DNA of 64,000 nucleotides from a plasmid: the sequence record NZ_CP118109.1; one strand, given 5' to 3'. Shown here piece by piece: positions 7,754 to 46,839 of the stretch (within the stretch, counting starts at the first letter, position 1; each line of letters opens with the position of its first letter). The notes beneath the pieces are model-generated. The model did no database searches, was not told the origin of the DNA, and saw only the letters and a program-made list of their open reading frames with translations. The position numbers and the translations under genes are program-made.

Positions 7754-8218
7754 ATGGAGCTTATGAAAGCTTATTTATATAATCAATTCCCTTTTCAAAC
7801 TACGGACATTTCTGCAAGAACGATTTCAAACCTGCTGACTTGCAATTGGTTTGAGGATGATCGAAAATCGGCAGCTTATACAATATTGCATCGAAGACTG
7901 TTAATCAGTTCACAGTGGTACAAGATTACATTACGCTTTAAAAAAGAAGGTCCTGAATTATTGTCATTAGATACGCCTGCCCCTTTTATGGTTGTTCTCA
8001 GTGAAGTGAAAGAGGCAGACAATAAAAATTCTCGTTTTGTAGATAAGCAGGTTTATCATTCTAAAACTGTTGGCACTGTATCAGGATACCTTGAGAAAGG
8101 TATACCTGCAGAGCTAATTGATGCAATGATTGAAGAGTTCAGGATCAGTGTGCAATACGGCATTCCTATGGTTGAAATCGCTTCTGCTAATAGTAAACTT
8201 TCAGAAATACCATTTTGA
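7754..8218 (+). CDS. hypothetical protein starting MELMKAY
   Basis: GGAGG 7 nt upstream of the second ATG; MELMxxY N-terminus. Confidence 0.5.
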   Translation: MELMKAYLYNQFPFQTTDISARTISNLLTCNWFEDDRKSAAYTILHRRLLISSQWYKITLRFKKEGPELLSLDTPAPFMVVLSEVKEADNKNSRFVDKQVYHSKTVGTVSGYLEKGIPAELIDAMIEEFRISVQYGIPMVEIASANSKLSEIPF

Positions 8219-8232
8219 GGAGGAGATTGATT

Positions 8233-9495
8233 ATGAGTTTTCCATCACAAATTAACGCTGCCTTGTCTGGACATACGGCAAGGCGTTTACATAGTTTTCT
8301 TGAGTTCCCTGAAGGCAAGTCAATTACTGCCCTTGATTTTAAAGCTTTTAATGGCAAGACATTAGATGAATTAACTTACTTTGCGAGTGAACGCTACCTA
8401 TATGGCGCCGAAGCAAGTGAGTATATGGCGAAGGAAGCCAGTACTTTCTTTGAAAGAGTTGCCCTTTCTCATTACAAGAGAGAGATGAAGATAAGTAATG
8501 ATGCTTTTTCGCTAGCAGTTGTTGATCCTTATATTCACCCGCAATTCATTGAAGATATCTTTATGTCCTATGATCCTTTTCAAATCCCTGACTTTGAGGC
8601 TGAGATACGGCAGCAACAACAATCGCTTCAATCTACTGCAGATAATTATCTCGATCTGAATCAGCTTGAAATGACGGAGGAAGAAGTTGAAAAGCGCAAA
8701 GTAGATATGGAAGAGCGGATTCAGAAAGCAATCGAAGATAGAAACATTGCATATCGTAAGGCATTACGTGAACAAGAGAAACGTACTTCTGCCTTGCGTG
8801 ATGATAAGCTCCTTTTAACGAATGCTGCTCGTTATTTAAAGCCTGGCGGCATTCTTATCATGCTTACTCCGAAGGAATTTATTGATGCACATATTTCATT
8901 TAAGTTGGCCAACGCCTTTGAAGATATTCAAATTTTCCGCCTGGATGATAGCGAATATGAGAAGCACAGAAAGTGCGTTATTATCGCTAAGAAACGCCTA
9001 AGAACAGAGAAGCAAGATACGCTCCCTTACGAGATCATGCAGACGAAATACAAGCCTTACAAGGATATTCCGGTTATCTCTGTACAAGAGAAACCTCTAT
9101 ATAAAGTTCCTGAAGGAAAGAAAGAAGATGTAGTCAGCTTCCGGATCGGACCGATTACACCAGAAGAAGTTCAACAAGTCATGAGAAAGTCTATGCTCGT
9201 CGAAAACTATGCTGTTCAGCATGGAATAACCCTGGATAATATCACACCAAAACCACCCACGCAGCTGCATAAAGGACATGTATCATTAACCCTTGCAAGT
9301 GGACTGCTAAACGGATATATCGGCACTGGTGCGGATCGCCACTTGGTTAAAGGATCGGTTGTCAAAAAGAATAGTGAGTTTACTGAAGAGGAAGAAACGG
9401 ATCGCGGAACTGAGATTAAGACCGTAGATCGTGAATACTTCCATATCGGAATCAAATATTTAGATCGGCACGGTGATTTTCACAAATTATTATAG
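8233..9495 (+). CDS. methyltransferase-like protein (LKPGG motif, catalytic motifs not recognisable)
   Basis: ARYLKPGGILIMLTPKEF resembles the post-motif-IV segment of SAM methyltransferases; VVDPY is a possible degenerate motif I; RBS gaggagga. Confidence 0.45.
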   Translation: MSFPSQINAALSGHTARRLHSFLEFPEGKSITALDFKAFNGKTLDELTYFASERYLYGAEASEYMAKEASTFFERVALSHYKREMKISNDAFSLAVVDPYIHPQFIEDIFMSYDPFQIPDFEAEIRQQQQSLQSTADNYLDLNQLEMTEEEVEKRKVDMEERIQKAIEDRNIAYRKALREQEKRTSALRDDKLLLTNAARYLKPGGILIMLTPKEFIDAHISFKLANAFEDIQIFRLDDSEYEKHRKCVIIAKKRLRTEKQDTLPYEIMQTKYKPYKDIPVISVQEKPLYKVPEGKKEDVVSFRIGPITPEEVQQVMRKSMLVENYAVQHGITLDNITPKPPTQLHKGHVSLTLASGLLNGYIGTGADRHLVKGSVVKKNSEFTEEEETDRGTEIKTVDREYFHIGIKYLDRHGDFHKLL

Positions 9496-9506
9496 GAGGT
9501 TGTGTC

Positions 9507-12752: not shown

Positions 12753-12755
12753 TCT

Positions 12756-12914
12756 ATGGACCTAATGCAACATTATCTTGAAAAGAAATACTTGATCGGT
12801 GAAGCATGGATGTGCCGCCTTCGATGTTATGAATGCGGCAGGTCCTACCATTACTTTGAGTATATTAAAAAATATTGCTGTTTTTCATGCTATTCAAAAT
12901 ATGCTGCTGTATAG
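12756..12914 (+). CDS. Cys-rich micro-protein starting MDLMQHY (52 aa, 8 Cys)
   Basis: ORF below track cutoff immediately after the helicase stop; CxxC x3 pattern. Confidence 0.3.
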   Translation: MDLMQHYLEKKYLIGEAWMCRLRCYECGRSYHYFEYIKKYCCFSCYSKYAAV

Positions 12915-12940
12915 CTAGCAAGCAAAAGGAGAGATATTCT

Positions 12941-13414: not shown

Positions 13415-13416
13415 AT

Positions 13417-13778: not shown

Positions 13779-13791
13779 GGGGGAATCTTGG

Positions 13792-14685: not shown

Positions 14686-14713
14686 AAAACTAACTTATTG
14701 GAGGAATTTTATT

Positions 14714-15019: not shown

Positions 15020-15020
15020 C

Positions 15021-15311: not shown

Positions 15312-16652
15312 ATGACTATGACACTTGAACATGATATTGATTTAGATAAGAAGGTTGACCTGCAGCTGGCTGATGATGCGAATAAGGTAAGAAAGATAAC
15401 AATTAAGACTGCTGAGCTATTAAAAGCAGTGAGACGAGCTGTATCCATTGTTAACCATAATCATTCAACTCTTGTATTGCAAAATATATTCTTTGCTACT
15501 ACAGATAACGGAATTATTTTACGAGCTGTAAACGACAGCTTTTCTGTAGAAACAACAATCGATCCGGCACATTGCGTGATTGAAGATGATCCGAGATCTG
15601 TTTTGTTTCCAGCTAAGCGTCTTTTAGATATTGTCAGTAAAATGAGCGGAAAGAATACGACGATCTTTATTCGGGATAATTTCATTCGAATCAAGTCAGG
15701 TCGAGCTAATATGGATATTGGAGTCCAGGATGCAGACGAGTTCCCAAAACTGCCTCAGATCAAGAAAGGAAACACTTTCGAAATCGCTGCTGATGCATTG
15801 CTTGATATGTACACTCGTACAGTATTTGCAACCTCTAAGCTTGAAAGCATGCCTGTTTTGCAGGGCGTACTACATGACATTGAAGATCAAAGATTCCGCT
15901 GTATTGCAACGGATCGTCATCGTTTTGCGCAGGTCTATCATCCGACAACTATTGAGTGTGAGCCAATGCGTGTCAGCGTTCCTGCAATAACAATCAATGA
16001 AGTTATGAAGCATCTGAAAGAAAAGAAGGCTGATACGATCAAGGTTACAGTCAAAGACACTCGTGTAGTATACGATATGAACGATACTGTCCTTTACTCC
16101 CAGGTATTAGAAGGCACATATCCGGATACAAATCGAATCATCCCTACTGGAGCTAAGGCTACTGTGACAGTTCCTAATTCAGAGTTCCTAGGCGCAGTGA
16201 AGCGGGCAGCTATCTTTTTGGATGATTCTAATTCTTCTAAAATAACAATCATGATTGATGGCGAAAAGAACCAGATGCGCATTCAATCACTGGATAGTGA
16301 TGAAGGCACAATGTTAGAAGATATGGTAACACTAAAAGGAGAGGGCGGGTTTGCTTCATCCACGATGAATGGTCGTTATCTGCTTGAGTCCCTAAGCAGG
16401 ATTGGTGGCACTGCTCATGTTGAGATTAAGATGACATCAACAATGCCTTTTCTCTTAAGAGAAGCTAATGCTCTTGAAGGTAATGTAAATGTCGTTGTGC
16501 CTGTTAAGCATAGACTTGATAGCTCGAAATCTATCGAAAACTTTACGTCAAATTATAACGAAGAAGAAGCTGATCCTTTTGCTGGTCGTGCAGAGGAATA
16601 CGCTGAGCAGCAAGCTTCTGAGGCTACTGAAAGCCAAGAAGGAGCAGCTTAA
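15312..16652 (+). CDS. dnaN: DNA polymerase III beta subunit (sliding clamp) with acidic C-terminal tail
   Basis: ATDRHRFA (ATDGHRLA motif), RYLLESL; RBS gtggaggcg. Confidence 0.8.
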   Translation: MTMTLEHDIDLDKKVDLQLADDANKVRKITIKTAELLKAVRRAVSIVNHNHSTLVLQNIFFATTDNGIILRAVNDSFSVETTIDPAHCVIEDDPRSVLFPAKRLLDIVSKMSGKNTTIFIRDNFIRIKSGRANMDIGVQDADEFPKLPQIKKGNTFEIAADALLDMYTRTVFATSKLESMPVLQGVLHDIEDQRFRCIATDRHRFAQVYHPTTIECEPMRVSVPAITINEVMKHLKEKKADTIKVTVKDTRVVYDMNDTVLYSQVLEGTYPDTNRIIPTGAKATVTVPNSEFLGAVKRAAIFLDDSNSSKITIMIDGEKNQMRIQSLDSDEGTMLEDMVTLKGEGGFASSTMNGRYLLESLSRIGGTAHVEIKMTSTMPFLLREANALEGNVNVVVPVKHRLDSSKSIENFTSNYNEEEADPFAGRAEEYAEQQASEATESQEGAA

Positions 16653-16674: not shown

Positions 16675-16702
16675 TTGATTTTAGCTTGTAACGTGTTATA
16701 AT
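16675..16702 (+). promoter_or_regulatory. sigma-A-type promoter TTGATT-16-TATAAT
   Basis: consensus-like hexamers; palindrome motif lies just downstream. Confidence 0.5.
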
Positions 16703-16705
16703 TCA

Positions 16706-16722
16706 AAATGTAATGCGTTACA
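16706..16722. promoter_or_regulatory. copy of recurrent palindrome AAATGTAATGCGTTACA
   Basis: direct read; embedded in a larger inverted repeat cttgtaacg...cgttacaag. Confidence 0.6.
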
Positions 16723-16750
16723 AGCTCATGCTAATAGGGGGCTAATAACG

Positions 16751-16969
16751 ATGACAGCAATGACAGTTGAAGATATGTATGCAATGAAACCAGTAGGCAG
16801 TGTGATTCCTTTCTTTAATTTCACCGGATATAAATCAGGTGATTCTGTGCAGGTGGCTGACGGCGCTTATGACTACGACAACAAGGTGTATGTCGTAGAA
16901 GGAAGCCGAATACAGCATATCTGGCATAATGAAGAGAATCAAATGGCATTTGAATTTGAAGGGATTTGA
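16751..16969 (+). CDS. hypothetical protein
   Basis: RBS aggggggct. Confidence 0.5.
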   Translation: MTAMTVEDMYAMKPVGSVIPFFNFTGYKSGDSVQVADGAYDYDNKVYVVEGSRIQHIWHNEENQMAFEFEGI

Positions 16970-16974
16970 AGTAC

Positions 16975-17208
16975 ATGAACTTCGACGTTCAGCGTTCAAT
17001 ATTTGCAACAAATGCATTCGCTTCAGAATTTCCGGAACAGCATACTCAGCTCTGGAAAGAGTTTGAAGAAAAGGTTCCACAGGTAAATCGGATTGGCTAT
17101 TATGGCGCAGATAATGTGGCTTATATAGGCTGGCTCCGTAGCACGAAGAATGCACTCTTTAATTCATTTTTGCAATCCAATATTGCAACAAAGCATTTTG
17201 ATGCATGA
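16975..17208 (+). CDS. hypothetical protein
   Basis: ATG with gaaggga RBS; track start 16966 is alternative. Confidence 0.45.
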   Translation: MNFDVQRSIFATNAFASEFPEQHTQLWKEFEEKVPQVNRIGYYGADNVAYIGWLRSTKNALFNSFLQSNIATKHFDA

Positions 17209-18790
17209 TATAAGAATGTGGTGGCGGAAGAGAGACGCTTAGGTCTAAGGCAGATACGACTCGGTGAGCCCCGGCGCAATTCTCAGAGAGGCGGACTAGA
17301 AACCGCGCTGTAGAAACGTAGAGCCGGATTAGGGCCGTGGGAACCTGTAAGGGGAAGTCAGTTAGGCTGCTACCCGTGATGATGAAATGCTGCTATGCAA
17401 GGGAGAATGGCCCTTGCCCACATTCTTGCTCTCATTCAGCGCACAAGAGTACTGTCCCCCCGGTCTTGAGGACAGCGGCTTGCAACTGAAACCGGTAAAG
17501 GAGCCGACCTTGTGCGTTGAATGAGGGTCTTTTATTCACCCTTTTTTTCCCCTCATCTAAGAACTATAAAGGGTAGGTTATCTGATTTAGCCGTAGGAAG
17601 TCTGGAGTTATTCGTTAGTAGGTTTGTAGGCGCTGCAGAGCCGATCACTGAGGACGGTAGCCTGGATGGACTATTCAAAAATCAGACGACAGTATGCAAA
17701 AACTGACGTTACACAACAGCCAGGACCGAACCTGCAAAAAAGGCGATGAAGAGAGGCAAAAGATGGGCCCTCCGCGACAACCTAGGGGTGTGATGAGGGT
17801 TGTCATGATCATACTGGATGTGAGTCTGCCATGATAGCTTAATTGGGAAAGCGCATGACTGAGAATCATGAGATGCGGTTCAATTCCGATGTGGTGGCAT
17901 TCTAGTATGATTCACTTATGTAGGCGCACTGATGATCTTGTCCGGTTCCGCAAGCCACGCTGATGCGGGTAGACTGGTCTTGTATCGAATCTGAGAGAGT
18001 AAATAGTGGATTAGAAACGGGCGGCTTAAATGACCGGCAACGCGTGGCTTGCCGGCATCATAAGCTGGAGTGTTTCGGCTCCGTTTGCATCCCTTGCTTT
18101 GCGACAGCAGTTAGTCACACGAAACGCAGAACCCTTAGTGACTTTCAGTGCGCTACATAGATTTGTCCGGAATAGCTTAACGGTAGAGCGCTCGTATAAA
18201 CCCATACGAGAGATCAGAGGTTCGATTCCCGTTTCCGGCTTCTGCATTTAGCATACAAGTAAAGACCGTAGATCAGCCAGAGACCTCTGTATTATTTACT
18301 TGAAAAGGTGCGTTGTGTACGAAACTTTTCAAGTAAACAATATAGGCAAGTAGCGAAAGCTATTATAAGTCCAATTGTTTTCTGGTGCATGGATGCTTAA
18401 ATGGGATCAGGTGCAACAAGTGCCAATGGCAGGGTAGAAGACTCGAATCGGTTGCTTTAAGTTTCCGTTTATCGGATCGGATGGATGCTTGAACAGTAAT
18501 GTTCTTGATCGTGAAAAACACCTTTCATCCTATATGCTTAAAGACCTGCAGCTTGTATGTTAAATGGAGAAAGTTTGTGGGGCGGATTAAGTCTCAATGG
18601 ATTGGACGAGGGCGAAGCTTACTATTAATTTCAGGTAGGATCTTCAGGCATCGAGCAGTTGGGTGTCTGAAGACTATCTTTAAATCCTATATGCCGAAAG
18701 GCCAAGGCTTAATGACCCTAACGAAAACTTTCCGAGACTCACAGGTGATCTGCAGTCGGGTAAGCGGTAAAGACCGGCGTACATAATATA
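17209..18790 (+). ncRNA. about 1.6 kb ORF-free, GC-elevated, structure-rich region: candidate large non-coding RNA(s) with tRNA-like fragments
   Basis: only short both-strand overlapping ORFs without RBS; many GC hairpins; internal intrinsic terminator at 17523; tRNA-like D-arm TAGCTTAACGGTAGAGCG and GGTTCGATTCC T-loop near 18170-18245. Confidence 0.5.
17523..17551 (+). terminator. intrinsic terminator inside the non-coding region (likely 3' end of a roughly 330-nt RNA)
   Basis: gggtg-cttttattc-caccc followed by TTTTTTT, nested in atgaggg/ccctcat stem. Confidence 0.55.
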
Positions 18791-22691: not shown

Positions 22692-23738
22692 ATGTCAAAT
22701 AAGGTATATAATGACTCATTGTATAACGAGGATGTGAAATTAAAGTTCCTAGAGTTAATGAAAAAGAATGGTTGTTCTGAAAATACATTAGTTACATATA
22801 AGCGAGTTTTTCTACGCGCATCTGGATTAGAAAAAAGATTTAAGACGGATCTGTATGATTTTACATTCGAATATATAGAAAAACTCTTAATCAAGATGAA
22901 TCATACAACATTAAACTCCGCAATAAGCAGCATTAGCATCATAAGAAGTTACATTGATTGGGCGATACAGAACAAGTACAGAAAGGTGCCTTTAAGCCCA
23001 CTGGACGTATTCACTACGAAGGAATTGGCCCAGCGATACAAGAACAAACGAGTAAGAGTATATTTTACACATGCTGAAGTGCAAAAGTTTGCAGATAGCG
23101 CTGTGAATGCGCAGGATAAGGCTCTCATTTGGGCAATGTTTCATGGTATATGTGGAAATGGGATGGCAGAACTAAGGAATCTTACGTTGTATGATATTGA
23201 TCAGCATAACTATAAATTGACTCTTAAGGACGATGATTCAGAGAGAGTTATTGAACTCATCTCAGATGAACAAAAAAAATTGATCGACCACCTTCTTAAA
23301 GCCCATGAGCAAACTCATTATCTAAAGGGAAACGGAAAGTCTGTTGCTAAAAACCCTATCGGTTTCTTAGCAAAAAATAACCATGTATTTAGGCCTATGA
23401 TTCGTGGAGACAGTTCTACTGCTTCTTATCATGTTTTAAGAAATAGACTTGTAGATATATCAAAAATCAACGAAGAGCCGCAACTAACTTCCCCTATTTC
23501 GTTAAGATATAGTGGGATGCTTTATATGGCTTATTGTGAATATCAAAAGCATGGGGCGTTGAGTCTTGAGTCCATAAAGAGAATTTCAGATTTCTATGCT
23601 ATCAGTAAAGTAACTGATTCCAAATATGACAACTTCTTTATTCGAAGAGAATTTTTAACCGAAGAAACGATCATAAAGGAATATCTCTCTGGAGACGAAG
23701 GAGAAGAAGACTATGGAGTTGATGCAAAGATATTTTGA
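22692..23738 (+). CDS. tyrosine-recombinase/integrase-like protein (tentative)
   Basis: N-terminal SAM-like segment TLNSAISSISIIRSYIDWAI; C-terminal SYHVLRNRLV (HxLR-like) and downstream Tyr; motifs weak. Confidence 0.4.
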   Translation: MSNKVYNDSLYNEDVKLKFLELMKKNGCSENTLVTYKRVFLRASGLEKRFKTDLYDFTFEYIEKLLIKMNHTTLNSAISSISIIRSYIDWAIQNKYRKVPLSPLDVFTTKELAQRYKNKRVRVYFTHAEVQKFADSAVNAQDKALIWAMFHGICGNGMAELRNLTLYDIDQHNYKLTLKDDDSERVIELISDEQKKLIDHLLKAHEQTHYLKGNGKSVAKNPIGFLAKNNHVFRPMIRGDSSTASYHVLRNRLVDISKINEEPQLTSPISLRYSGMLYMAYCEYQKHGALSLESIKRISDFYAISKVTDSKYDNFFIRREFLTEETIIKEYLSGDEGEEDYGVDAKIF

Positions 23739-24006
23739 TAATCTTTATCCCAAGGTTCAGGTTATATCAAATCGATTCAAGTGTACCCTAGATTATCACA
23801 CGATAAAAAGATGGCTAAATGCTAATGTTCCAAGACAGTTTACTCATAAGTATGGGGGCTATACTTATACCACAACAGGTCTTGGCAAAGAGATTGTTGC
23901 TAAGGTTGTATGTGAAGGAAAGATTAACGGCGATGCAGTTTACTGTGCTATCGTTTTTCATAATTCGATTCGCATATATCTAAAGCAGGGGTTAAATTAT
24001 TTGTGA
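23713..24006 (+). CDS. hypothetical protein starting MELMQRY
   Basis: overlapping start; MELMxxY N-terminus. Confidence 0.45.
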   Translation: MELMQRYFDNLYPKVQVISNRFKCTLDYHTIKRWLNANVPRQFTHKYGGYTYTTTGLGKEIVAKVVCEGKINGDAVYCAIVFHNSIRIYLKQGLNYL

Positions 24007-25048: not shown

Positions 25049-26092
25049 TTAACGAAGCAATTGAAGAACTGCTTGTGGTTGTTGGTTTGCTTGAGCCAAC
25101 ATTGCTTGAGCTGCTTGGGAAAGAATCGAGTTCTTAGTTTGCTCAACCATTTCTTTCGCCATGTCAACGTCACGAATACGGGATTCAGATGCTGTCAGGT
25201 TCTCTGCTGTTGTACCCAGGTTATTTACTGTGTGCTCCAAACGGTTTTGTACGGAACCCAATTTAGAACGCTCAGCAGATACGCTCTCGATCGCTGCGTT
25301 AATTGTAGTGATTGCTGTATCAGCGTCTTCTTGGTTAGAAATGTTGATACCAGCGTTTACTTTTGCTTCATCAGCATATGCTTCGTCAACTTTGACAACC
25401 ATTTTGTCGCCATCGTAGTAACCAGCTACAACAACATCATCTTCGGTTGCCTTTCTAGTTGTACCATTACCACTGCCATCGTCAATGTCGTCTCCGACAT
25501 TAACTGCTTCTTTAAAAGTAAGTGTAGTTGTTCCGGCAGTCAAAGTTGCAGTAGTGCCATCGTTATCAGATGTGTACTCTGTGCTTACTTTCAGCGCTTC
25601 AGCGCCCATGTCACTAATTGAAAGACTAATGCTTTGACCTGCATTTGCTCCGATTTGGAATGTAACATTTTCAGCAGAACCATTGATCAGCTTTTTCGTA
25701 TTGAACTCAGTGTCTGTAGAGATACGAGTCAATTCTTCAGCTAATTGGTTTACTTCTTTTTGAAGCTCTGCGCGGTCGGAATCCGTGTTTGTGTCAGATG
25801 CTGATTGAACTGCCAGCTCACGCATACGTTGCAGGATAGAATGAGATTCATTCAATGCACCTTCAGCTGTCTGGATCAGTGAGATACCATCTTGAGCGTT
25901 ACGAGAAGCTTGCTCAAGACCGCGGATTTGTCCACGCATTTTTTCGGAGATTGCAAGACCCGCTGCGTCATCACCAGCACGGTTGATGCGAAGACCGGAA
26001 GACAATTTCTCCATGTTTTTTCCTTGTGCAGAGTTAGCTGCGCCCAGGCTGCGTTGAGTGTTAATCGCCGCAATGTTGTGATTGATAATCAT
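25049..26092 (-). CDS. hag: flagellin
   Basis: N-terminal [17 protein letters not shown]...[30 protein letters not shown] and C-terminal flagellin helices; RBS GGAGG. Confidence 0.9.
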
Positions 26093-28475: not shown

Positions 28476-28510
28476 AAAAGCAGAAGGATGTCTCCCTCTG
28501 CTCTCTTTTT
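28476..28510. terminator. bidirectional terminator
   Basis: aaaaaaa-gcagaagg-atgtct-ccctctgc-tctcttttt. Confidence 0.5.
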
Positions 28511-33940: not shown

Positions 33941-34393
33941 TTATACTTTTGTCTCAATATGAACTGCCTCAAGGTCGGTATAAATGGATCCATCAAAGAC
34001 GAGCGTGCCAACAATGATTCCTCTTATGAAATGCTGCTTAGTAAGTATTTCAATGGAGGTTCTATCTTGCCACTCTATAAATTTTCTCATATCTTTTAAA
34101 TTGCTAAATGTAAAAGGTATGCTTGCGATTACTCTTGAAGTTGTGAATGCACTCGAAGGACGCAAGTGCATATCAAACGAGCCAGTCGTATTTGAATATA
34201 TGTGATCATTAAGTTTCTCGATCTTTACAGAAGTAGCATAGCCTTTAATAATTTCATCCGTCATTGGATTATAAATAAGCGCCATGTTTTCTTCATGCCA
34301 ATGCTTTTCACTTTCAGGAACATTCAGCTTCATAGAGAATAGCCATTTATATACATCCAGATCTCTTTTTAGATAAGTGCTCATCAATTCCAT
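33941..34393 (-). CDS. hypothetical protein
   Basis: ORF track. Confidence 0.5.
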   Translation of the reverse strand: MELMSTYLKRDLDVYKWLFSMKLNVPESEKHWHEENMALIYNPMTDEIIKGYATSVKIEKLNDHIYSNTTGSFDMHLRPSSAFTTSRVIASIPFTFSNLKDMRKFIEWQDRTSIEILTKQHFIRGIIVGTLVFDGSIYTDLEAVHIETKV

Positions 34394-34737
34394 TATTCGT
34401 ATTCCTTACAATTGAATGTGAGCAGCCAGCTACCGTCCATTTGCCGGCCAAGCCTATGATAGACAATTTGATATGCCCGCTCTCCCCCGCCTATGAATTT
34501 CATCATCAAAACACGCATGCGATCTTCCCATCCATCCATAGATGGATCGTCTTTAAGTTCTTCCATGACCCACTCTTCAATAATGACTTTGCCCTGTGTT
34601 ACATCTGAATAGTCCGGATGGGGCCTAAACTCCTCTAATCGTGACACCGTCAGAGATACGGTTTGCTTCCTTTTATTTACTATCCAGAGCATAAAGCTCT
34701 CGACAGTTTGATCTAAATAGACTTCCATGAGATTCAC
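34393..34737 (-). CDS. hypothetical protein
   Basis: ATGA-type overlap with downstream gene. Confidence 0.5.
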   Translation of the reverse strand: MNLMEVYLDQTVESFMLWIVNKRKQTVSLTVSRLEEFRPHPDYSDVTQGKVIIEEWVMEELKDDPSMDGWEDRMRVLMMKFIGGGERAYQIVYHRLGRQMDGSWLLTFNCKEYE

Positions 34738-38533: not shown

Positions 38534-39397
38534 TTAATCCACCTTTGAGAAAGTTATATTTTTCTCAGCTACTTCGCGCACAAGATCTCCATTTGTGTCG
38601 CCGGTGATTACGTCGGGGATAGGTCTGCCTTCTTTTATAGCAGCTCTGATATTTTCGACATCCTTATAAGCTTCGCTGCCGAAGTTAAACGGATTAGGAT
38701 TACGGATACTACCATCATTCTTGGCACTATCTGAGTGGCAGTAGATATTAAAAGGGCAATCTTTGCACTTATAATTGCTCGGCGTATATCCTTTTTCAAG
38801 CGGAGGGAGCATTCTGTCTTTGGCCAGCTGTATACATTCGTTTGCTTTTTGCTCTAGCTTCTTGCCGTATACAGGGTCGTAATTCATGTGGTATTCCCAA
38901 ACGTCTTGTGTATCCTTCTCTTCAACGAAAATGATTCCTTTGTGGATGCCAGATAAATGCATGTAAAACGTAAGCTGCGCTTTATGTTCAGCCTTTGGTT
39001 TATTGTTTTCTTTCATCCACTTAAAGCTATGACTGAATGCGCTCTTTAGTTCCACCAAGAACTTTTCCCCAAAGGGATTTAGAAAGCTTGGAATACTGAT
39101 AAGCGCATCCGTATGTCCGCTGATATCGTCCCGCTCTAACTTCATTTCTGCCTGAACGAGGACTCCCATATCAGCGAACAATTTCTCGTAACGGTGATGC
39201 ATGCTATGACCATTTTCGAAGATTCGGATGAGCTGCGGATCAGTTTCTGGCTTCGGAACCATAAGCATATCGAATACGATTTTCCGCTTACACATGCCGA
39301 TCGTAGAAGGATGAAGCTTTCTCATCGGCCTTGTTTCATTGGCTAGTTTCTTTTTTTGATGTCGTTCGATATAGGTTTGAAGCAATCCCGCCATCAT
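38534..39397 (-). CDS. Cas4/RecB-like PD-(D/E)xK nuclease with Cys cluster
   Basis: GHTDALI, FLVELK (ExK), QLTFYMH, CKDCPFNIYC. Confidence 0.55.
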   Translation of the reverse strand: MMAGLLQTYIERHQKKKLANETRPMRKLHPSTIGMCKRKIVFDMLMVPKPETDPQLIRIFENGHSMHHRYEKLFADMGVLVQAEMKLERDDISGHTDALISIPSFLNPFGEKFLVELKSAFSHSFKWMKENNKPKAEHKAQLTFYMHLSGIHKGIIFVEEKDTQDVWEYHMNYDPVYGKKLEQKANECIQLAKDRMLPPLEKGYTPSNYKCKDCPFNIYCHSDSAKNDGSIRNPNPFNFGSEAYKDVENIRAAIKEGRPIPDVITGDTNGDLVREVAEKNITFSKVD

Positions 39398-39482: not shown

Positions 39483-39731
39483 TTAATTATCTCCGCTTAC
39501 TGCCTCTTCATCTTCGGTTGTGAGATCTGAATACATTTCTCGGTTGCATAAGACAATTTGATTAAAGAACTTACTGGGTACAATTAGATTTCCTGCAACA
39601 ACATAGTTATCTCGTTCAGTGATTTCTTTCAGTCTTAGTTCCAATGGAAAATGATTTAAGTTGTTCGAACAATCCAAGGTGGCAACTCCAGCAATCATAG
39701 TGTTCTCGTTAAAGTTCATCATCGTAGACAT
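39483..39731 (-). CDS. hypothetical protein
   Basis: ORF track. Confidence 0.4.
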   Translation of the reverse strand: MSTMMNFNENTMIAGVATLDCSNNLNHFPLELRLKEITERDNYVVAGNLIVPSKFFNQIVLCNREMYSDLTTEDEEAVSGDN

Positions 39732-40498
39732 TTTATTTCTCCCTTTACACGTTTTTCGCGGAAGCTATCAGCGATTCGTTTTCGAATGCGATAAACAGAT
39801 CGATGATGGAGCCCGTTAATTCGAGCAATCTCTCTATCTGTCATGCCTTCATCGTAAGCCTTAAGAAGAATAAATCTTTCGCTATAACTCAGTTCTTTGA
39901 ACAAATCGCTACCTACTATGCCGTTCAACCACAGAATATTGTCCAGTTCAGTATACTCATCAACCTCCATATTTAGAGGCTCATAATAATACTTGTTTTC
40001 TATGATGCTGTCTATGGCTCGATCGTCATTTATGTAGCGGTCATCTTTGTAAGAGTACTGTTCTTCTTCCATACTCTCGAACATCTTATTATCCACAAAC
40101 CGCTTTACTCGGTATCTAAACACACTGTATACATATCGGCTAAAGCCGAATCCCATTTCTTTATAGGAGTGCGCACATTCTAACAATACGATTAGCAGCT
40201 CATGCTCAATCTCCGCTATATCATAGACGGAGAAAGTGTCTCGAATGTTCTTGATGACATCATAAACCTTCTCGATCGTTTCGCTTTTGCATCCTCCAGC
40301 TTTACAAAGATCATTGATGATTTCAGCTTCCCGAATGAAGCAGGATAAAAATCGCTTAGAATCATAGCTTTTAAAATCCATTTCTCCGTAGACGAGAAGC
40401 CTGCTGTATCTTCGTATCATCTTGTGATATCTTCTCATCAGAGGATTGGCATCGCCTTCTTCAAGATAACTATGAAGCGGATCGTGTTGCTTCTTCAT
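39719..40498 (-). CDS. sigma-70-family sigma-factor-like protein (region 4 HTH)
   Basis: MTDREIARINGLHHRSVYRIRKRI; RBS gaggaagg. Confidence 0.5.
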   Translation of the reverse strand: MKKQHDPLHSYLEEGDANPLMRRYHKMIRRYSRLLVYGEMDFKSYDSKRFLSCFIREAEIINDLCKAGGCKSETIEKVYDVIKNIRDTFSVYDIAEIEHELLIVLLECAHSYKEMGFGFSRYVYSVFRYRVKRFVDNKMFESMEEEQYSYKDDRYINDDRAIDSIIENKYYYEPLNMEVDEYTELDNILWLNGIVGSDLFKELSYSERFILLKAYDEGMTDREIARINGLHHRSVYRIRKRIADSFREKRVKGEIKCLR

Positions 40499-41054: not shown

Positions 41055-41067
41055 GATCGGTATCTCC

Positions 41068-41696: not shown

Positions 41697-41709
41697 CTTT
41701 ACAAGTTTC

Positions 41710-41880
41710 TCATCTTCCTTGCTCTCCGTCTGCTGGCTTTCCACTGCCCAATTCCTTTTCGGACCGATCCTCATTCTCTTTGACATCTCCTTTCTTAGGT
41801 GCTAAATCTTCCGTGAATACACCACGACCTAGGTCTTCAATAATACGATATCCTCCCATGTTTTCACCACCATTCTCCAT
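41710..41880 (-). CDS. small protein MENGGENMGGYRIIEDLGRG... (57 aa)
   Basis: first ORF after palindrome/promoter; overlaps the track ORF 41322..41786 in another frame. Confidence 0.3.
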   Translation of the reverse strand: MENGGENMGGYRIIEDLGRGVFTEDLAPKKGDVKENEDRSEKELGSGKPADGEQGR

Positions 41881-41907
41881 TATAGTCTCTATATCTCTTG
41901 TTTACTT

Positions 41908-41936
41908 AAAATGTAATGCGTTACGTTTTACATTAT
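41908..41936. promoter_or_regulatory. palindrome variant AAATGTAATGCGTTACG+TTTTACATT downstream of TGTTATAAT
   Basis: direct read. Confidence 0.55.
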
Positions 41937-41952
41937 AACACAATTTCTGCAT

Positions 41953-41978
41953 AAAAAAAGAGGGGATTTCACCCCTCC
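41953..41978 (-). terminator. terminator after protease gene
   Basis: A-run then gagggg-atttca-cccctc. Confidence 0.6.
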
Positions 41979-41980
41979 TA

Positions 41981-42874
41981 TTAGCCGATTAATTTTTCGA
42001 GATCGATAAGCCCATCGCCAGTATAAATGTCTCTGCCTGGAATACTTAAATCCTCACAGGATTCTTCTAGCTTTGCATGAACTTCTTCTAGCGTGGGCTC
42101 TACTCCTTGCCCTCTGCAGAAGCTAATATACAGTGCAATACATCCAGAGATAATAGGCGCTGCCATGCTGGTGCCGGATAGCTTCGCATAACCTCCATCT
42201 TTATACGTAGAGAAGATGTCTACACCAGGAGCCATGACTTCATTCTTGATGCCATAGTTACTGAATGGAGCTCTCTCTTTCCCTGGAGACATTGCAGATA
42301 CAGCGATTACTTCGTCATACATGGCTGGCCAACATACACCTGTATTTTCATTGCCTGTAGCAGCAACAACTATAATACCTGCGGCAGCCGCTTCTTTAAT
42401 GGCTTTGTGTAATTCCAGAGGCGGCTCGCTTGCACAGCCGAGACTCATGTTGATGATATCTACATTTTGCTCAATTGCCCACCGCAAGCCATTGATAATG
42501 GATTGAAAGTTGCCTCCTCCATTGTCTCCAAGGACTTTTGCGACATACAGCTCTGCATCAGGTGCGATCCCCACAACTCCTATTCCGTTGTCTGCCGCTC
42601 CAATGATGCCAGCAACATGTGTTCCATGCCCTTGTTTGTCTTCAGGTCCATACGGAGAGCGAGTGAAGTCTGCATAGACTTTCAAGTTCGGCTGCAGGTC
42701 TGGATGATCACGATCCACGCCCGTATCAAGGACAGCCACTTTGACTCCTTTACCGGTTGTGGTATTCCATACATCGGGTGCATTTACGGCTTCAATACCC
42801 CAATCAATAATGTCATCGCGCATCTCTGCGCCATGGGTTTGGACGATTTTATAGTCCGCCTGGGTGTCACTCAT
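41981..42874 (-). CDS. subtilisin-like serine protease (peptidase S8)
   Basis: catalytic D (VAVLDTGVD), H (HGTHVAGII), S (GTSMAAPIISG). Confidence 0.85.
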   Translation of the reverse strand: MSDTQADYKIVQTHGAEMRDDIIDWGIEAVNAPDVWNTTTGKGVKVAVLDTGVDRDHPDLQPNLKVYADFTRSPYGPEDKQGHGTHVAGIIGAADNGIGVVGIAPDAELYVAKVLGDNGGGNFQSIINGLRWAIEQNVDIINMSLGCASEPPLELHKAIKEAAAAGIIVVAATGNENTGVCWPAMYDEVIAVSAMSPGKERAPFSNYGIKNEVMAPGVDIFSTYKDGGYAKLSGTSMAAPIISGCIALYISFCRGQGVEPTLEEVHAKLEESCEDLSIPGRDIYTGDGLIDLEKLIG

Positions 42875-42915
42875 AGTTTCCTCCTATGTTTTCACCCTGT
42901 ATCCTATCTTCTATA

Positions 42916-42934
42916 ATTGTAACACGTTACATTT
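42916..42934. promoter_or_regulatory. palindrome variant ATTGTAACACGTTACATTTT
   Basis: direct read upstream of protease gene. Confidence 0.5.
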
Positions 42935-43302
42935 TACTTTTCAGTAGTTTGTGAAAAATCTATAAAGAGGTCTTGTTCTTTGATTTGATCCATATAAGCC
43001 TGGAGTTCTTCATCGGTAACAGCTATATATACTCCACATGATCGGTCGGTGATACTGCATTTTCTTCTTTCTTCAACTCTTACTCTTCCGGACATTGTCA
43101 TTTCTGTTAGTCTCGGATGAACCAGATTGCGATCCCATCCTTTTAAGAGGTCGGCCTCGTACATTTTAGCTGCAATTTCGTTAGCTGTTAAGCCATCTTC
43201 ATATTGAAGAAGAAAGCTATGTATGATGTTCTGACGAGTTGCTACATCCTGTTTAACCAGATCGAAAGACTCTTTGCGGGTGCTGCTTGTTATTGTTGAC
43301 AT
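42934..43302 (-). CDS. winged-helix DNA-binding protein (candidate regulator)
   Basis: LTANEIAAKMYE...VHPRLTEM pattern. Confidence 0.45.
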   Translation of the reverse strand: MSTITSSTRKESFDLVKQDVATRQNIIHSFLLQYEDGLTANEIAAKMYEADLLKGWDRNLVHPRLTEMTMSGRVRVEERRKCSITDRSCGVYIAVTDEELQAYMDQIKEQDLFIDFSQTTEK

Positions 43303-43317
43303 GTTAATTCGCTCCTT

Positions 43318-43812
43318 TTATGAGTTTAGAAATGCATTTATGACTGACGATAATATCAATAAAGATCCTGTAACTATTGCCATTCGCCATAATCGGTCTT
43401 CTTTCTTTTTTGTGGCTTCCCTTGTCTTTGCAGCTTTTTCTAAGTCAGCAAGTGCCTTGGCTGCTAATTCTTCTCTTTCTTGCGCCCGTCGCATGGTATC
43501 TTCGAGCCTTCTATCTTCGAGTATTCTCTCAGCTTCTCGATTATAATCTACAATGTCGGAACCTCCGGAACGACGCTGCTCTTCTTCCAGTAGATCTTGC
43601 CAGTTGCGTATTTCTTCCGGTATATACGTAACACTTCCAGGATCCTGAAGAATAGTCGCAGGCCGTATGGATATTCGCTCCATCTCTTCTCTCGCATCAA
43701 CCGGCACTGGTATATTCCAACCTATAATCTGCCCAGTGCCTTTGTGTCCTCTTAAATATATATCTTTAATTTCATCCCTTACCTTTTGCTGGTAGTTTGA
43801 CAATAGCTCCAT
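43318..43812 (-). CDS. hypothetical protein starting MELLSNY with C-terminal TM
   Basis: RBS ggggag. Confidence 0.5.
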   Translation of the reverse strand: MELLSNYQQKVRDEIKDIYLRGHKGTGQIIGWNIPVPVDAREEMERISIRPATILQDPGSVTYIPEEIRNWQDLLEEEQRRSGGSDIVDYNREAERILEDRRLEDTMRRAQEREELAAKALADLEKAAKTREATKKKEDRLWRMAIVTGSLLILSSVINAFLNS

Positions 43813-43816
43813 ATGA

Positions 43817-44083
43817 TTACTCCCCCAAATTCTGAACAATAAACGAAATGATAACGAGTATGCCGATCCCTACCATTGTCCATCCAAATCTCCGAAACGC
43901 CTTATCCACTTCTGGCCACCCGCATGTATTTACTTTCTTCGTTCCTCTGCCTCGCGGACGTACTCCTTCATGCACAATAGTACCCTTTGGCCGATCCATG
44001 CCTAGCGTTCTTGGTGTAGACGCAGGAACCTTTATCACATTCCTATGACGATCTTGATATCTTTTCATCATCTCCATGGGCAT
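43817..44083 (-). CDS. small protein with C-terminal TM
   Basis: ORF track. Confidence 0.45.
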   Translation of the reverse strand: MPMEMMKRYQDRHRNVIKVPASTPRTLGMDRPKGTIVHEGVRPRGRGTKKVNTCGWPEVDKAFRRFGWTMVGIGILVIISFIVQNLGE

Positions 44084-44452
44084 TTACCATTGAACCGCAT
44101 ATCTTGGAGTAACGCCTTTTTTGTTATAGTGATTAAGTGCATTACTGCTCATGACTCCTGTTAAATCCCCTTTCGTCTTGGAAGATACATAACGAACAGA
44201 GTGAGTGATTTCTGGCGATGAAGTATCTATTATTACTTGGATATGATCGATAAGCGCTGCTTTTTTCAGTTCACCATGAAGTTCTTCTAACATATTTGTA
44301 ATCCTATATACTCTTTTTTTACCATGCTCATTAATTTCCACAAATTGATTCAAAATGTTATCGACTATAGTCTTTGCCAAGTTTAATTTTACTTCGTTGC
44401 TAGTTAATTCAGCTTCAAAGCCATTTATATAATATTTTTTCATCAATTCCAT
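44084..44452 (-). CDS. hypothetical protein starting MELMKKY (paralog of next gene)
   Basis: shared KGDLTGVM motif and terminal W. Confidence 0.5.
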   Translation of the reverse strand: MELMKKYYINGFEAELTSNEVKLNLAKTIVDNILNQFVEINEHGKKRVYRITNMLEELHGELKKAALIDHIQVIIDTSSPEITHSVRYVSSKTKGDLTGVMSSNALNHYNKKGVTPRYAVQW

Positions 44453-44458
44453 GAGGCT

Positions 44459-44821
44459 CTACCACCTAATCCCATGAATTGGAATTATCCCTTCTTCTTT
44501 GTAACGCTCAATATCATGCTCATTCATCACGCCTGTTAAATCTCCCGCTTTTTTGGAACGCATATATCGTAATTGACAGTTAGTACAAGTCTTATTTATT
44601 ACGACGCGGACATGATAGGCAAGATCAGCAACAAGCAGCTTATCATATATTTCTTTTTCCATAGCCCTTGGGTCACTTACAGAGGGAGTTCTGTAGCGAT
44701 CCATTACGAGATGACTTTTCAATACATCTGAAACGATGTTTCCGGCTAACCTCATTATCTGGTCGTTTGTTTTTTCTTCTGCCTCGCTAATATTTAGCCT
44801 ATATCTTCTCATTAATTCCAT
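44459..44821 (-). CDS. hypothetical protein starting MELMRRY (paralog of previous)
   Basis: shared motifs; TAATG overlap. Confidence 0.5.
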   Translation of the reverse strand: MELMRRYRLNISEAEEKTNDQIMRLAGNIVSDVLKSHLVMDRYRTPSVSDPRAMEKEIYDKLLVADLAYHVRVVINKTCTNCQLRYMRSKKAGDLTGVMNEHDIERYKEEGIIPIHGIRW

Positions 44822-45564
44822 TAGCGCCACTCCATGCAATATTTTTGAGTCGGGCAGCTATCACAGTGGAAGCCTTCCCGAGGGTAGTACCAGCCTTCGT
44901 CCATCGACTTCTTAAGCATTCGAGCTGACTTATACAGTCTTTGATAGTCTGCACGCTTCCGATCTACATAGATGGACTGAGAAGTCTTTAAATGGTGTAA
45001 TACATACGTATCTACTTCTTTTCTATACATTGAATGAAAAGCTAACGCCTGCAGCGTAATACCCATATCTGTTCGCTGATAAAACTCAGTTGGACGCTGT
45101 GCTCTGGTTTGAAAGTTTACAATCTCATGCTTACCTCCTGGTGTCTCTCTGATCACAGGAATACGGCCGACAATATGAAAGTCTGGATCAATCTTTAGTC
45201 GGAAGTCTACATTAACGCCCACAGTCTTATCCGGATTGTACTGTTGCTGTCGATGGAATAGTGCGAGCATACTGAAAGCCTCCAGTTCTTTCTTGCGCTG
45301 ACTCTGCTTCTGATCGAACTTGATCTTATAGATTTTATCCTTGTCATACCAAAGGCCGGTAAACTTATCCTTCAGCTGACTCAGTGTAAGAAATTTACCT
45401 TCATGAAGATTCACATAATAATAGCTGATCGTGGCTAGCATAACCTCACGAAGCCCTTTGCTCTCCTCTGTCTTCAAGCGAGGTAGCTTATCGATATTCG
45501 TAAACTTATATTGCAAAGGGCAGGTTTTGAAATCGTAGAGCTGTTCTATTGTAATTTCTGTCAT
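44821..45564 (-). CDS. second Cas4-like PD-(D/E)xK nuclease
   Basis: N-terminal Cys plus C-terminal CDSCPTQKYC cluster. Confidence 0.5.
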   Translation of the reverse strand: MTEITIEQLYDFKTCPLQYKFTNIDKLPRLKTEESKGLREVMLATISYYYVNLHEGKFLTLSQLKDKFTGLWYDKDKIYKIKFDQKQSQRKKELEAFSMLALFHRQQQYNPDKTVGVNVDFRLKIDPDFHIVGRIPVIRETPGGKHEIVNFQTRAQRPTEFYQRTDMGITLQALAFHSMYRKEVDTYVLHHLKTSQSIYVDRKRADYQRLYKSARMLKKSMDEGWYYPREGFHCDSCPTQKYCMEWR

Positions 45565-45866
45565 AGTATCAACCTTTCTACCTCTACTACATTACCTTCC
45601 CAATCCCTGACGTCCCAAATTATATTTGCGCTATTGTTCTGTCCTAATACGACCATGACGTCAAAGTAAAGCTTATCATCCATAAGACCATACAGTCTTT
45701 CTCTTGCTCTCTTTGATATCTCTTTACCCATGATCTGCAAGTTTTCGGGAGTCAACATAAGATATTGCATGTCTATAAACGTTTCATTGGCGATTTCAAA
45801 AACCATATTTCTGATCCCCATATAGTCATAGACGTGACTCTTTAAATACGGGCGGAATAGCTCCAC
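45561..45866 (-). CDS. hypothetical protein starting (V)ELFRPY
   Basis: ORF track, GTG start. Confidence 0.45.
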   Translation of the reverse strand: MELFRPYLKSHVYDYMGIRNMVFEIANETFIDMQYLMLTPENLQIMGKEISKRARERLYGLMDDKLYFDVMVVLGQNNSANIIWDVRDWEGNVVEVERLIL

Positions 45867-46158
45867 GCAGGTTTCCCCCTCTTAATTCTTCAAGTGTTCT
45901 TTGCACTTCGCCCGTTAATCTTGCTCTATTTAGTTCATTGTTCGGCATGCCTACATAAGGAAGCTCAATAGCGTCACTCACTCTTCTGGTCAGACTTCTT
46001 TCAAGTTCAGCTCGAATCTCCTCTTCAAACATACTTTTTCCATATTCATAACTTCTTTTCATTCTTCCTTCGATGACACCGCTCGATCTAATTCTCTCCA
46101 ATATTTCCGAAGCAGTTGACTGCCTGAAACGTTTCCTGTATTCCTGCATTAACTCCAT
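45826..46158 (-). CDS. hypothetical protein starting MELMQEY
   Basis: RBS ggaggg; track ORF over-extended. Confidence 0.5.
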   Translation of the reverse strand: MELMQEYRKRFRQSTASEILERIRSSGVIEGRMKRSYEYGKSMFEEEIRAELERSLTRRVSDAIELPYVGMPNNELNRARLTGEVQRTLEELRGGNLRGAIPPVFKESRL

Positions 46159-46389
46159 AAGTAGCCCTCCTACGTTATTGATTCTGGCTTGCCTTCTCAA
46201 ATTTTTCTTGTCTGCTCTGAGCTGCTTTAAGGACGCAAACGGAAGATTCCATTTCTCTAATCCTTGCATTGATGTTATAGCTTGTTCTCATATGTCGATC
46301 TCTCATGCGGCGATATACGCTGATTCGCTCCTCAAGGCAGCGGATTGCATTTTCGTGAGCCATGCGGCCTCCTATGTACCAAGAGGAGC

Positions 46390-46839
46390 CTAAGCTCCCA
46401 CAAGGTTCTTTCTTGCTGTGTCATATTGACGGGCAATCGCTGCTGCGAGTTTATCATAAGGATCTTCCCATCCTTCTGGCTTCATTACTTTGCCGTCTTC
46501 TTTGTAATGAGGCTTGCCGTCTGGCCACAATTTGCTCATGTTTGCATGCTGAACGACATCCATGAGTTCTTGAGGTTTTACACCCAGCTCTACCAGTGTA
46601 CCGATAGCAAAGTAGATCACGTCAATCATAGCGTCAGCTTGATCGACAACAGTTTTAGCATCCAAAAATTCTTGTACTTCTTCATTAACCCAATTCATGC
46701 GCTTTGCCGCGCGTTCCGCATTCATGAGTGTTGGCAGCTCACTTACCGGATGATTAAATGCTTCCTGGAAAGCTTTCACCTGATCGTAAGCGTAGTCTAG
46801 CCCCTTGCCTTCATATTGATATGGTTGCATTAATTCCAT
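46390..46839 (-). CDS. MazG-like nucleotide pyrophosphohydrolase (tentative), starts MELMQPY
   Basis: EExxE...D acidic motif pattern. Confidence 0.4.
   Translation of the reverse strand: MELMQPYQYEGKGLDYAYDQVKAFQEAFNHPVSELPTLMNAERAAKRMNWVNEEVQEFLDAKTVVDQADAMIDVIYFAIGTLVELGVKPQELMDVVQHANMSKLWPDGKPHYKEDGKVMKPEGWEDPYDKLAAAIARQYDTARKNLVGA

Follow-up and report, generated by a model that had tools for sequence, protein, structure and literature searches.

A short N-terminal peptide shared by largely unrelated accessory proteins of a phage-plasmid lineage

In a 64,000-nucleotide stretch of plasmid sequence (record NZ_CP118109.1, hereafter the window) 12 of about 110 genes encode proteins that begin with the same short peptide, M-E-L-[I/V/M/L]-x-x-Y-[L/I], which we call the tag. 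We consider it reasonably probable that the tag is a transferable short linear motif that sits on unrelated accessory proteins and is recognised in trans. A sequence-only reading of the window had listed nine such N-termini between positions 7754 and 46839. All nine are start codons of open reading frames (ORFs) on the strands and with the peptides given there (seven ATG and one GTG, in addition to the start at 12756), and the true count is higher. A purine-rich, Shine-Dalgarno-like run lies 5-10 nt upstream of eight of these nine starts; the exception is 12756, which is coupled to an upstream helicase gene and lies 4 nt past its stop codon. A six-frame regular-expression scan for [ED]L[MLFIV]xxY directly after a start codon returned ten sites, all of them at ORF starts and none internal, the tenth being MELMSTY at 34393 on the minus strand. 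With Asn permitted at position 2 or Met at position 3, two further minus-strand sites appear, GTG-NLMEVY at 34737 and MEMMKRY at 44077.

These N-termini are far more frequent than chance predicts. The core hexapeptide occurs 24 times in the six frames of the window and is directly preceded by a start codon in 10 of the 24 cases, compared to about 5% expected. Among 109 rough gene calls, 0.016-0.036 matches at the N-terminus would be expected, whether the estimate is based on how often the motif occurs inside called genes or on amino-acid composition; the crude gene caller captured eight (Poisson P = 6e-17 to 1e-19). Seven tagged genes, one more than had been counted, are clustered within 3.5 kb at 43.3-46.8 kb. 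In the interval bounded by nrdF and the gene at 42934-43302, a PD-(D/E)XK nuclease is the only product of 80 amino acids or more that lacks the tag.

Judged from its gene content and its relatives, the window is part of a phage-plasmid of about 215 kb belonging to the 0305phi8-36 jumbo-phage lineage. It encodes DnaE, DnaN, DnaB, two primases, a class Ib ribonucleotide reductase and thymidylate kinase, together with sigma-factor-like, RemA-like, RusA, holin, amidase, MrpR-like recombinase, flagellin and subtilisin proteins. The tagged window proteins of 154 and 114 amino acids are 100% identical to proteins of Paenibacillus sp. TCA20 encoded on a 214,846-bp contig, and the window DNA is also present in two Logan assemblies. 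The MazG-like protein of the window is only 94% identical to TCA2_4599, which lies on a 206,307-bp contig of TCA20; this strain may harbour two related elements, or the window may derive from a close variant. The best complete relative is the linear 'plasmid unnamed2' of Paenibacillus rhizovicinus (228,841 bp, DnaE 58% identical). The assignment to the 0305phi8-36 lineage rests on this element: it has a terminase, ParM and a complete structural arm of the myovirus type, and in its major capsid protein it shares 46% identity with ORF125 of Bacillus phage 0305phi8-36 and 59% with the counterpart in Moorella phage MTATph1. The nearest isolates are MTATph1 and 0305phi8-36; no close cultured relative was found, and a megablast search of the tagged cluster against phages gave no match.

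Comparison with related elements, which had been proposed as a check, shows that relatives from Paenibacillus, Alicyclobacillus, B. licheniformis and B. thuringiensis also carry the tag. The P. rhizovicinus element has 27 tags in exact register and two variants, a prefixed MazG (MSELVGAY) and an unannotated 56-amino-acid ORF, i.e. about 11% of its approximately 255 genes. All of them lie between 94 and 197 kb, in the non-structural arm, and none in the structural arm; 13 consecutive small genes are tagged at 105.9-110.4 kb. Seven tags are found within 23 kb of Alicyclobacillus shizuokensis and three to seven on each of six IMG/VR contigs. A B. licheniformis plasmid carries MEMTKLY, MELITEY, VELVREY and MNLIEEY, and the 259-kb B. 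thuringiensis plasmid pd carries MELVSRY, MELVSMY, MELVKVY and NLVEKY as well as MELTQPY on a dUTPase. In contrast, the complete 140-kb B. cereus plasmid pG9842_140, which shares DnaE (54% identical), the S8 peptidase, RemA, the sigma factor and head genes with the clade, has no tagged gene; it is the sole complete tag-free relative compared and lacks about 90 kb of genes. No tag is present in 43 kb around DnaE of phage MTATph1. Across 2.9 million IMG/VR contigs the sub-pattern ATGGAGYTNATHNNNGCNTAYYT has 24 matches, and these coincide with gene starts only on contigs of the clade. We found no description of the motif in the literature.

In a logo of 69 tags, position 2 is Glu in 58, Asn in 7 and Asp in 4, and position 3 is Leu in 64 and Met in 5. 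Position 4 is Ile, Val, Met or Leu (25, 17, 15 and 11 tags) and position 8 is Leu in 30 and Ile in 12. The shared peptide had been described as a heptad; it is real, but with Leu or Ile at position 8 in 42 of 69 tags its length is eight residues. Past position 8 the logo shows no conserved residue. Positions 5 and 6 are helix formers (A/E/Q/K/R/L/M) in 66-73%, Pro or Gly occupies position 6 in about 6%, and Pro is found within residues 11-15 in 29% of tagged proteins as compared to 13% of the other gene calls in the window. Of 74 starts of the form M[ED]L[MLIV], 57 have Tyr at position 7. The remaining 17 are mostly evident spurious ORFs, in the wrong frame or without a Shine-Dalgarno site, and include a few annotated starts, e.g. 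that of a terminase; the only Phe at position 7 among the 74 belongs to a spurious ORF. The residue at position 4 depends on the lineage. It is Met in 10 of the 12 window tags and in the nearest relative, L022, Ile in Alicyclobacillus and Leu in L025, while in P. rhizovicinus a first scan found Val or Ile in 20 of 21 tags and a wider scan allowing Ala or Thr added six (MELA/MELT). Position 4 shifts in concert within each genome.

The codons point to selection on the peptide rather than on a DNA site. Variation at third codon positions had been noted before and proves wider than described: Leu3 is encoded in the window by five codons (CTA, TTG, TTA, CTT and CTC), Glu2 by GAG and GAA, and Tyr7 by TAT and TAC. 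In P. rhizovicinus, Leu3 uses CTC, CTT, CTG, CTA and TTA and position 4 uses eight different Ile/Val/Leu codons. The information content of the DNA has a three-base periodicity and resides only in the first and second bases of codons 1-4 and 7; third positions hold 0.4-0.5 bits in the window, and in P. rhizovicinus those of codons 3-4 hold about 0.1-0.2 bits. Upstream of the tag starts there is no conservation beyond the Shine-Dalgarno site. Taken together, the five Leu3 codons, the restriction of information to codon positions 1 and 2 and the conservation of only the Shine-Dalgarno site upstream indicate that the peptide is what selection maintains. Conserved synonymous positions and a fixed register, the marks of an mRNA or initiation element, were not found. 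Embedded stop codons (YTR-ATG holds TAA or TGA in another frame) were also considered as a cause of the DNA pattern and rejected, as the upstream genes end elsewhere and P. rhizovicinus uses CTN-GTN/ATY. The same applies to GGAG within ATGGAG as a Shine-Dalgarno site for Met4, for which the distance is 3 nt and other lineages have residues other than Met at position 4.

The motif is not strictly bound to the first residue. Prefixes of one to four residues are tolerated (MSELVGAY, MSKELVQAY, MEGKELVTCY), and a Cys-rich conserved protein of 197 amino acids (54196..54789, minus strand) contains the tag-like EMLEQY at residues 19-24, with QDLVEEY at the same place in its P. rhizovicinus ortholog. 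The latter copy is not N-terminal, and the protein was left out of the tagged count. Prefixed and internal copies argue against an effect on initiation and against the requirement for a free N-terminus, so that an N-end-rule degron with this requirement was rejected. A Sec, Tat or lipoprotein signal peptide, with its basic n-region, core of 7-15 hydrophobic residues and cleavage site, is likewise not recognisable in the tag: residue 2 is acidic, there are four hydrophobic positions, and the hydrophobic stretches of the carriers are C-terminal.

Apart from the tag, the carriers have little in common. With residues 1-10 removed, an all-versus-all BLAST comparison of the window carriers connects one pair only, and BLAST sorts 85 tagged proteins, drawn from ten genomes or contigs, into 62 families (E < 1e-3). 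The earlier statement that the downstream sequences are largely unrelated thus holds, and body homology uniting the carriers in a single paralogous family was not found. Three different Pfam domains occur among them, i.e. PRA-PH, dUTPase and Tad2-like; the dUTPase domain of the tagged B. thuringiensis protein starts at residue 37 and the Tad2-like domain of a tagged P. rhizovicinus protein spans residues 65-124. Among the window carriers only the MazG-like protein matched PHROGs, and it is the sole Pfam match above the curated cut-off, the other carriers being sub-threshold at most. Homolog searches with three orphan (ORFan) carriers recovered only the queries themselves, in one case with three weak partial matches. 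Transmembrane carriers number two in the window. Tagged transmembrane proteins are present in nine of ten tag-positive sequences examined, with none detected in L025, and the membrane segment is C-terminal (tail-anchored) in most of them. In B. licheniformis and in B. thuringiensis pd, where the annotation was checked, a tagged transmembrane gene adjoins the S8 gene.

The tag behaves as a module and is, by these comparisons, the most conserved part of the genes that carry it. This follows from the domains that start past the tag, from homologs without the extension, from a coil conformation in the structural model and from the divergence of the bodies at syntenic positions. Close orthologs of the MazG-like protein carry MELMxxY, MELLEKY, MSELVGAY or MSKELVQAY on linkers of variable length, while more distant homologs begin directly at the GLN/GLD core and lack the extension. 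An AlphaFold model of the MazG-like protein (46390..46839), calculated from a 65-sequence alignment, is all-alpha with an overall predicted local distance difference test (pLDDT) score of 94. Here, residues 1-10 have a mean pLDDT of 60, the chain is coil through residue 13 and the first helix starts at residue 14; the tag is thus predicted to lie outside the folded domain in this one confident model. For the protein encoded at 34393..34737 homolog searches recovered only the protein itself, which made a deep alignment impossible; the single-sequence model (overall pLDDT 64) is mostly beta, with a pLDDT below 50 for residues 1-11. In syntenic genes the fixed tag residues are kept although the bodies are only 15-40% identical.

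Three of the tagged window genes are on the plus strand. The gene at 7754..8218 (MELMKAYL, 154 amino acids) is located upstream of a DUF6094 methyltransferase-like gene and an SNF2-type helicase gene and has no match in Pfam or PHROG; its P. rhizovicinus ortholog starts with MELITAYL and is 34% identical in the body. The micro-gene at 12756..12914 (MDLMQHYL, 52 amino acids) encodes a Cys-rich, zinc-ribbon-like protein, and its syntenic counterpart in P. rhizovicinus, an unannotated ORF starting with MELVQTYF, is likewise CxxC-rich. The gene at 23713..24006 (MELMQRYF, 97 amino acids) overlaps the 3' end of the MrpR-like recombinase gene. The other nine are on the minus strand, beginning with two genes behind dnaE that were absent from the earlier list. 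Directly downstream of dnaE lies 34393..34737 (GTG start, (M)NLMEVYL, 114 amino acids). Of nine other tag-positive sequences that include this locus, eight have a gene with an unprefixed tag behind dnaE, and the first gene downstream of dnaE in B. thuringiensis pd has the prefixed tag MEGKELVTCY. For the second gene, 33941..34393 (MELMSTYL, 150 amino acids), a search of 1.84e9 representative proteins gave no credible homolog besides itself and three weak partial matches (E ~1e-5 to 1e-6); syntenic genes in relatives start with MELMAIYA, MELITRYL and MELLQQYI and are 15-27% identical in their bodies.

Within the cluster, 43318..43812 (MELLSNYQ, 164 amino acids) encodes a tail-anchored protein with a C-terminal transmembrane segment. 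Such a segment is also present in the product of 43817..44077 (MEMMKRYQ, 86 amino acids), a gene absent from the earlier list for which an alternative start at 44083 gives MPMEMMKRY. The genes at 44084..44452 (MELMKKYY, 122 amino acids) and 44459..44821 (MELMRRYR, 120 amino acids) form the paralogous pair (30% identity, E = 2e-17). The gene at 45561..45866 has a GTG start ((M)ELFRPYL, 101 amino acids) and an ortholog in relative L022 that starts with MELLREYL and is 28% identical in the body; for 45826..46158 (MELMQEYR, 110 amino acids) the L022 ortholog starts with MELMQIYQ and is 31% identical. The cluster ends with the MazG-like / PRA-PH nucleotide pyrophosphohydrolase gene at 46390..46839 (MELMQPYQ, 149 amino acids; Pfam PF01503, 1.8e-16, from residue 21).

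We propose that the tag would be the core of an N-terminal short linear motif of 8-12 residues, often followed by a proline-containing linker. A clade of phage-plasmids of about 200-260 kb within the 0305phi8-36 lineage attaches it to many unrelated, fast-evolving accessory proteins, including proteins whose homologs elsewhere are without it. One shared putative partner, of phage or host, would read the tag in trans, and the tag would act as an address label for a common fate. Peptide-level selection, modularity, clade specificity, the concerted change of residue 4 and the tolerated prefixes and internal copy all point to a linear peptide that is recognised by a common partner. Several observations weigh against this proposal. 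The carriers are mostly tiny ORFans and many of them may share a very remote ancestor, tandem arrays such as the 13 consecutive tagged genes of P. rhizovicinus suggest duplication, and the second AlphaFold model is a single-sequence model with a pLDDT of 64. A more far-reaching version, which we put forward tentatively, is a dedicated protein-sorting system with a label on about a tenth of the proteome, a co-evolving putative receptor and a common destination. The destination might be the inside of the capsid, with co-injection to follow, or a structure built by the phage and anchored through the tagged membrane proteins, and the clients would comprise anti-defence and nucleotide-sanitising enzymes and dozens of ORFans. 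Co-evolution with the receptor would then give rise to the lineage-specific residue 4.

As to the fate itself, our leading guess is loading into the procapsid for co-injection, by analogy with the T4 capsid targeting sequence (CTS). The T4 CTS is a short N-terminus shared by the unrelated, hypervariable internal proteins IPI-III and Alt; it is transferable and read in trans. We rank CTS-like loading first because T4 provides this precedent, in which an N-terminal peptide is all that hypervariable accessory proteins of a phage have in common, but even so regard it as a possibility that is more probably wrong than right. In this special case of the address label, accessory and anti-defence proteins would attach through the tag to the scaffold or the inner face of the capsid and so be packaged and injected with the DNA. 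The pattern resembles the T4 internal-protein loci in that a short peptide at the extreme N-terminus is the sole feature common to unrelated, fast-diversifying small phage proteins. The element has a large HK97-type head of the 0305phi8-36 lineage (the major capsid protein with 46% identity to ORF125), a Tad2-like anti-defence domain and nucleotide pyrophosphatases among the carriers could be useful on arrival, and the tag is placed on a flexible linker by AlphaFold. Cargo-loading peptides of encapsulins and encapsulation peptides of microcompartments are comparable as well: terminal peptides of about ten residues on flexible linkers dock unrelated enzymes inside a shell, which in encapsulins has the HK97 fold. 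However, their consensus sequences differ, those of encapsulins are usually C-terminal, and the only shell evident here is the phage head. The tag also has no sequence resemblance to the T4 peptide MKTYQEFIAE, and in the logo of 69 tags no conserved protease site, of the Glu type or other, follows it. Further points against capsid loading are that the carrier genes belong to operons with replication genes, run in the same direction as dnaE, nrdEF and the sigma-factor gene and are missing from the virion module, that several carriers are tail-anchored membrane proteins, and that about 11% of all genes would need to encode cargo. That pG9842_140 keeps head genes without a tagged gene is compatible with capsid loading but does not support it.

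Ranked second, after capsid loading, and rather doubtful in our view, is a proteolysis signal, i.e. a cleavage site or degron read by the S8 peptidase or by a host protease or adaptor, with residue 4 at P4 and Tyr7 at P1. The carriers would then share a common lifetime or an N-terminal processing step. A formal parallel is the recognition of ssrA by the adaptor SspB: ssrA (AANDxxY) is likewise a short linear peptide read at positions 1-4 and 7, the two positions in between being free, and it delivers unrelated proteins to one machine. It is an analogy only: ssrA is C-terminal and added co-translationally by transfer-messenger RNA, and there is no sequence similarity. The sequence-only reading had named the S8 protease as a possible reader. 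The gene (41981..42874, minus strand, Pfam 6.6e-60) lies 450 bp from the tagged cluster and encodes a bona fide subtilisin: residues 23-293 align to residues 4-271 of mature subtilisin BPN', the catalytic triad and N155 are conserved, and the S4 pocket is hydrophobic (F104, I107, L126, L135). A hydrophobic residue 4 and Tyr7 fit generic P4/P1 preferences. With a 22-amino-acid N-terminal extension and neither prodomain nor signal peptide it is built like an intracellular subtilisin, in which an N-terminal LIPY/F propeptide binds across the active-site cleft (PMC6220982). Like the tag, that motif combines Leu, a hydrophobic residue and Tyr within the first nine residues; however, L-hydrophobic-x-x-Y is one residue longer than L-I-P-Y, so that the spacing does not correspond, and the LIPY/F motif acts in cis on the protease itself (PMC6220982). 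Pro or Gly at position 6 in some tags fits poorly with a strict helix and the motif is recognisable away from residue 1, both of which favour a protease substrate, whereas the helix formers at positions 5 and 6 do not. We found no positive evidence for a specific link between the tag and S8. The gene is a core gene: all relatives examined have it in their replication module, MTATph1 (annotated 'protease') among them, and it is equally present in tag-free pG9842_140, where the triad is intact and the pocket differs at one position (129) from those of tag-positive L058 and L023. Neither co-distribution with the tag nor covariation of the S4/S1 pocket residues with the lineage-specific position 4 was detected, the N-terminal motif of S8 itself is not conserved across the clade, and P4-P1 recognition leaves the invariance of Glu2 and Leu3 unaccounted for. 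The structural arm of the 0305phi8-36 lineage has its own protease/scaffold gene (PMC2147016).

The remaining explanations dispense with the address label or give it a different reader. Common descent, which we think unlikely, would make the tag a relic or a cis-acting structural element, the slow-evolving first helix of an ancient exploded paralog family from which a few enzymes captured a 5' end by recombination. This would agree with the tandem arrays (seven genes in 3.5 kb, 13 in a row in P. rhizovicinus), with the paralogous pair and a few cross-locus families, and with the position of the MazG-like gene at the edge of an array. It would have to accommodate 62 BLAST families, MazG-like, dUTPase and Tad2-like folds, membrane-anchored proteins and a zinc ribbon, an all-alpha domain next to a mostly-beta model (the latter single-sequence, pLDDT 64) and a tag predicted outside the fold. 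Moreover, something must hold eight residues constant while the bodies decay, so that common descent explains the origin of the tag and not its function. A translation-initiation-context signature, as suggested earlier, in which codons 2-8 or the nascent heptapeptide would adjust translation of accessory genes with low expression, at initiation or in early elongation, did not stand up and is very improbable. The motif is exactly at the start codon in most cases and codons 2-4 are rather A/T-rich in the window (GAA TTA ATG), but third positions are free, with Leu encoded by both CTN and TTR, and the 50%-GC element of P. rhizovicinus encodes the same peptide with GC-richer codons. Prefixes and an internal copy at residues 19-25 are tolerated, Tyr7 is essentially invariant and never Phe, and no tag occurs in the structural arm, the home of the capsid and other virion genes. 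We give just as little credence to a docking motif for the element's own sliding clamp (DnaN), in which a PIP-box-like M1-x-x-hydrophobic4-x-x-Y7-hydrophobic8 would hold accessory proteins at replicating DNA. Clamps are classic hubs to which many unrelated proteins bind by short terminal motifs, and the hydrophobic4/aromatic7/hydrophobic8 spacing is similar to that of a PIP box. A phage-type dnaN is present in the window (15312-16652) and in every tag-positive plasmid found (P. rhizovicinus, three of B. licheniformis, B. paralicheniformis, B. halotolerans and B. thuringiensis pd) and absent from tag-free pG9842_140. However, this co-occurrence is confounded with genome size, many genes being missing from the 140-kb element. 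The bacterial clamp-binding consensus is QL[SD]LF or QLxLxL, and the tag, with Glu2 and hydrophobic residues at 3, 4, 7 and 8, has an incompatible register. The carriers are also not DNA-transaction enzymes: in P. rhizovicinus uracil-DNA glycosylase, RNase H, helicases and DnaE are untagged, while membrane proteins, MazG and dUTPase are tagged.

The kind of system proposed here has a precedent in the T4 CTS and, by analogy, in the cargo peptides of encapsulins. What is new is the motif sequence, the clade in which it occurs, its lineage-specific flavour and how many clients it has (about 11% of genes). If the tag is indeed an address label, it defines from sequence alone a functional class of proteins, mostly ORFans with no other handle, and provides a portable peptide of 8-12 residues for finding the receptor and delivering foreign cargo. 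It would then be a second independent example, besides the T4 CTS, of a phage proteome sorted by a short N-terminal peptide, with many more clients and a label that varies by lineage.

Several other features of the window and its relatives were recorded. The minus-strand gene at 39719-40498 encodes a protein of 259 amino acids with a C-terminal HTH_23 domain whose orthologs in B. licheniformis and B. thuringiensis are annotated as sigma-70-family; it is a core gene of the clade and adjoins RusA, RemA-like and DnaE. Tag-like strings in this protein (DPLHSYL, NPLMRRY; DELIKAY...DDLVAAY in relatives) are likely ordinary sigma N-terminal helices and were not counted. A minus-strand gene at 38534-39397 (287 amino acids, no Pfam match) is 59-84% identical in Paenibacillus, Alicyclobacillus and IMG/VR relatives, as high as DnaE, and ranks among the proteins most strongly conserved there; neither pG9842_140 nor the examined region of B. 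licheniformis yielded an ortholog. At 25049-26092 on the minus strand lies a full-length flagellin gene (Flagellin_N 6e-47, Flagellin_C 1e-29), which has no detectable ortholog in P. rhizovicinus or the other relative loci compared. The region 16700-18600 contains no convincing ORFs; it harbours a tRNA-Leu(GAG) at 17827-17898 and a second tRNA at 18166-18240 that is found by Rfam, not by ARAGORN. The MrpR-like tyrosine recombinase (22692-23738, plus strand) and a protein with DnaA_N and helix-turn-helix domains (28509-29483, minus strand) are plasmid-maintenance-type functions that fit a phage-plasmid lifestyle. An untagged Tad2-like (Thoeris anti-defence) protein of 101 amino acids is encoded at 52652-52957 on the minus strand, and the tagged Tad2-like protein of P. 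rhizovicinus at 95353-95793. The annotation of the linear P. rhizovicinus record lists the identical proteins WP_162645764.1 and WP_162645765.1 close to each end (L003 6800-10653, L007 18570-22423), which points to a long terminal direct repeat as in 0305phi8-36. The P. rhizovicinus element also encodes an AgrB/AgrD quorum-sensing pair (133872-134524), a GGDEF protein and a GNAT acetyltransferase, the latter inside a run of tagged small genes.

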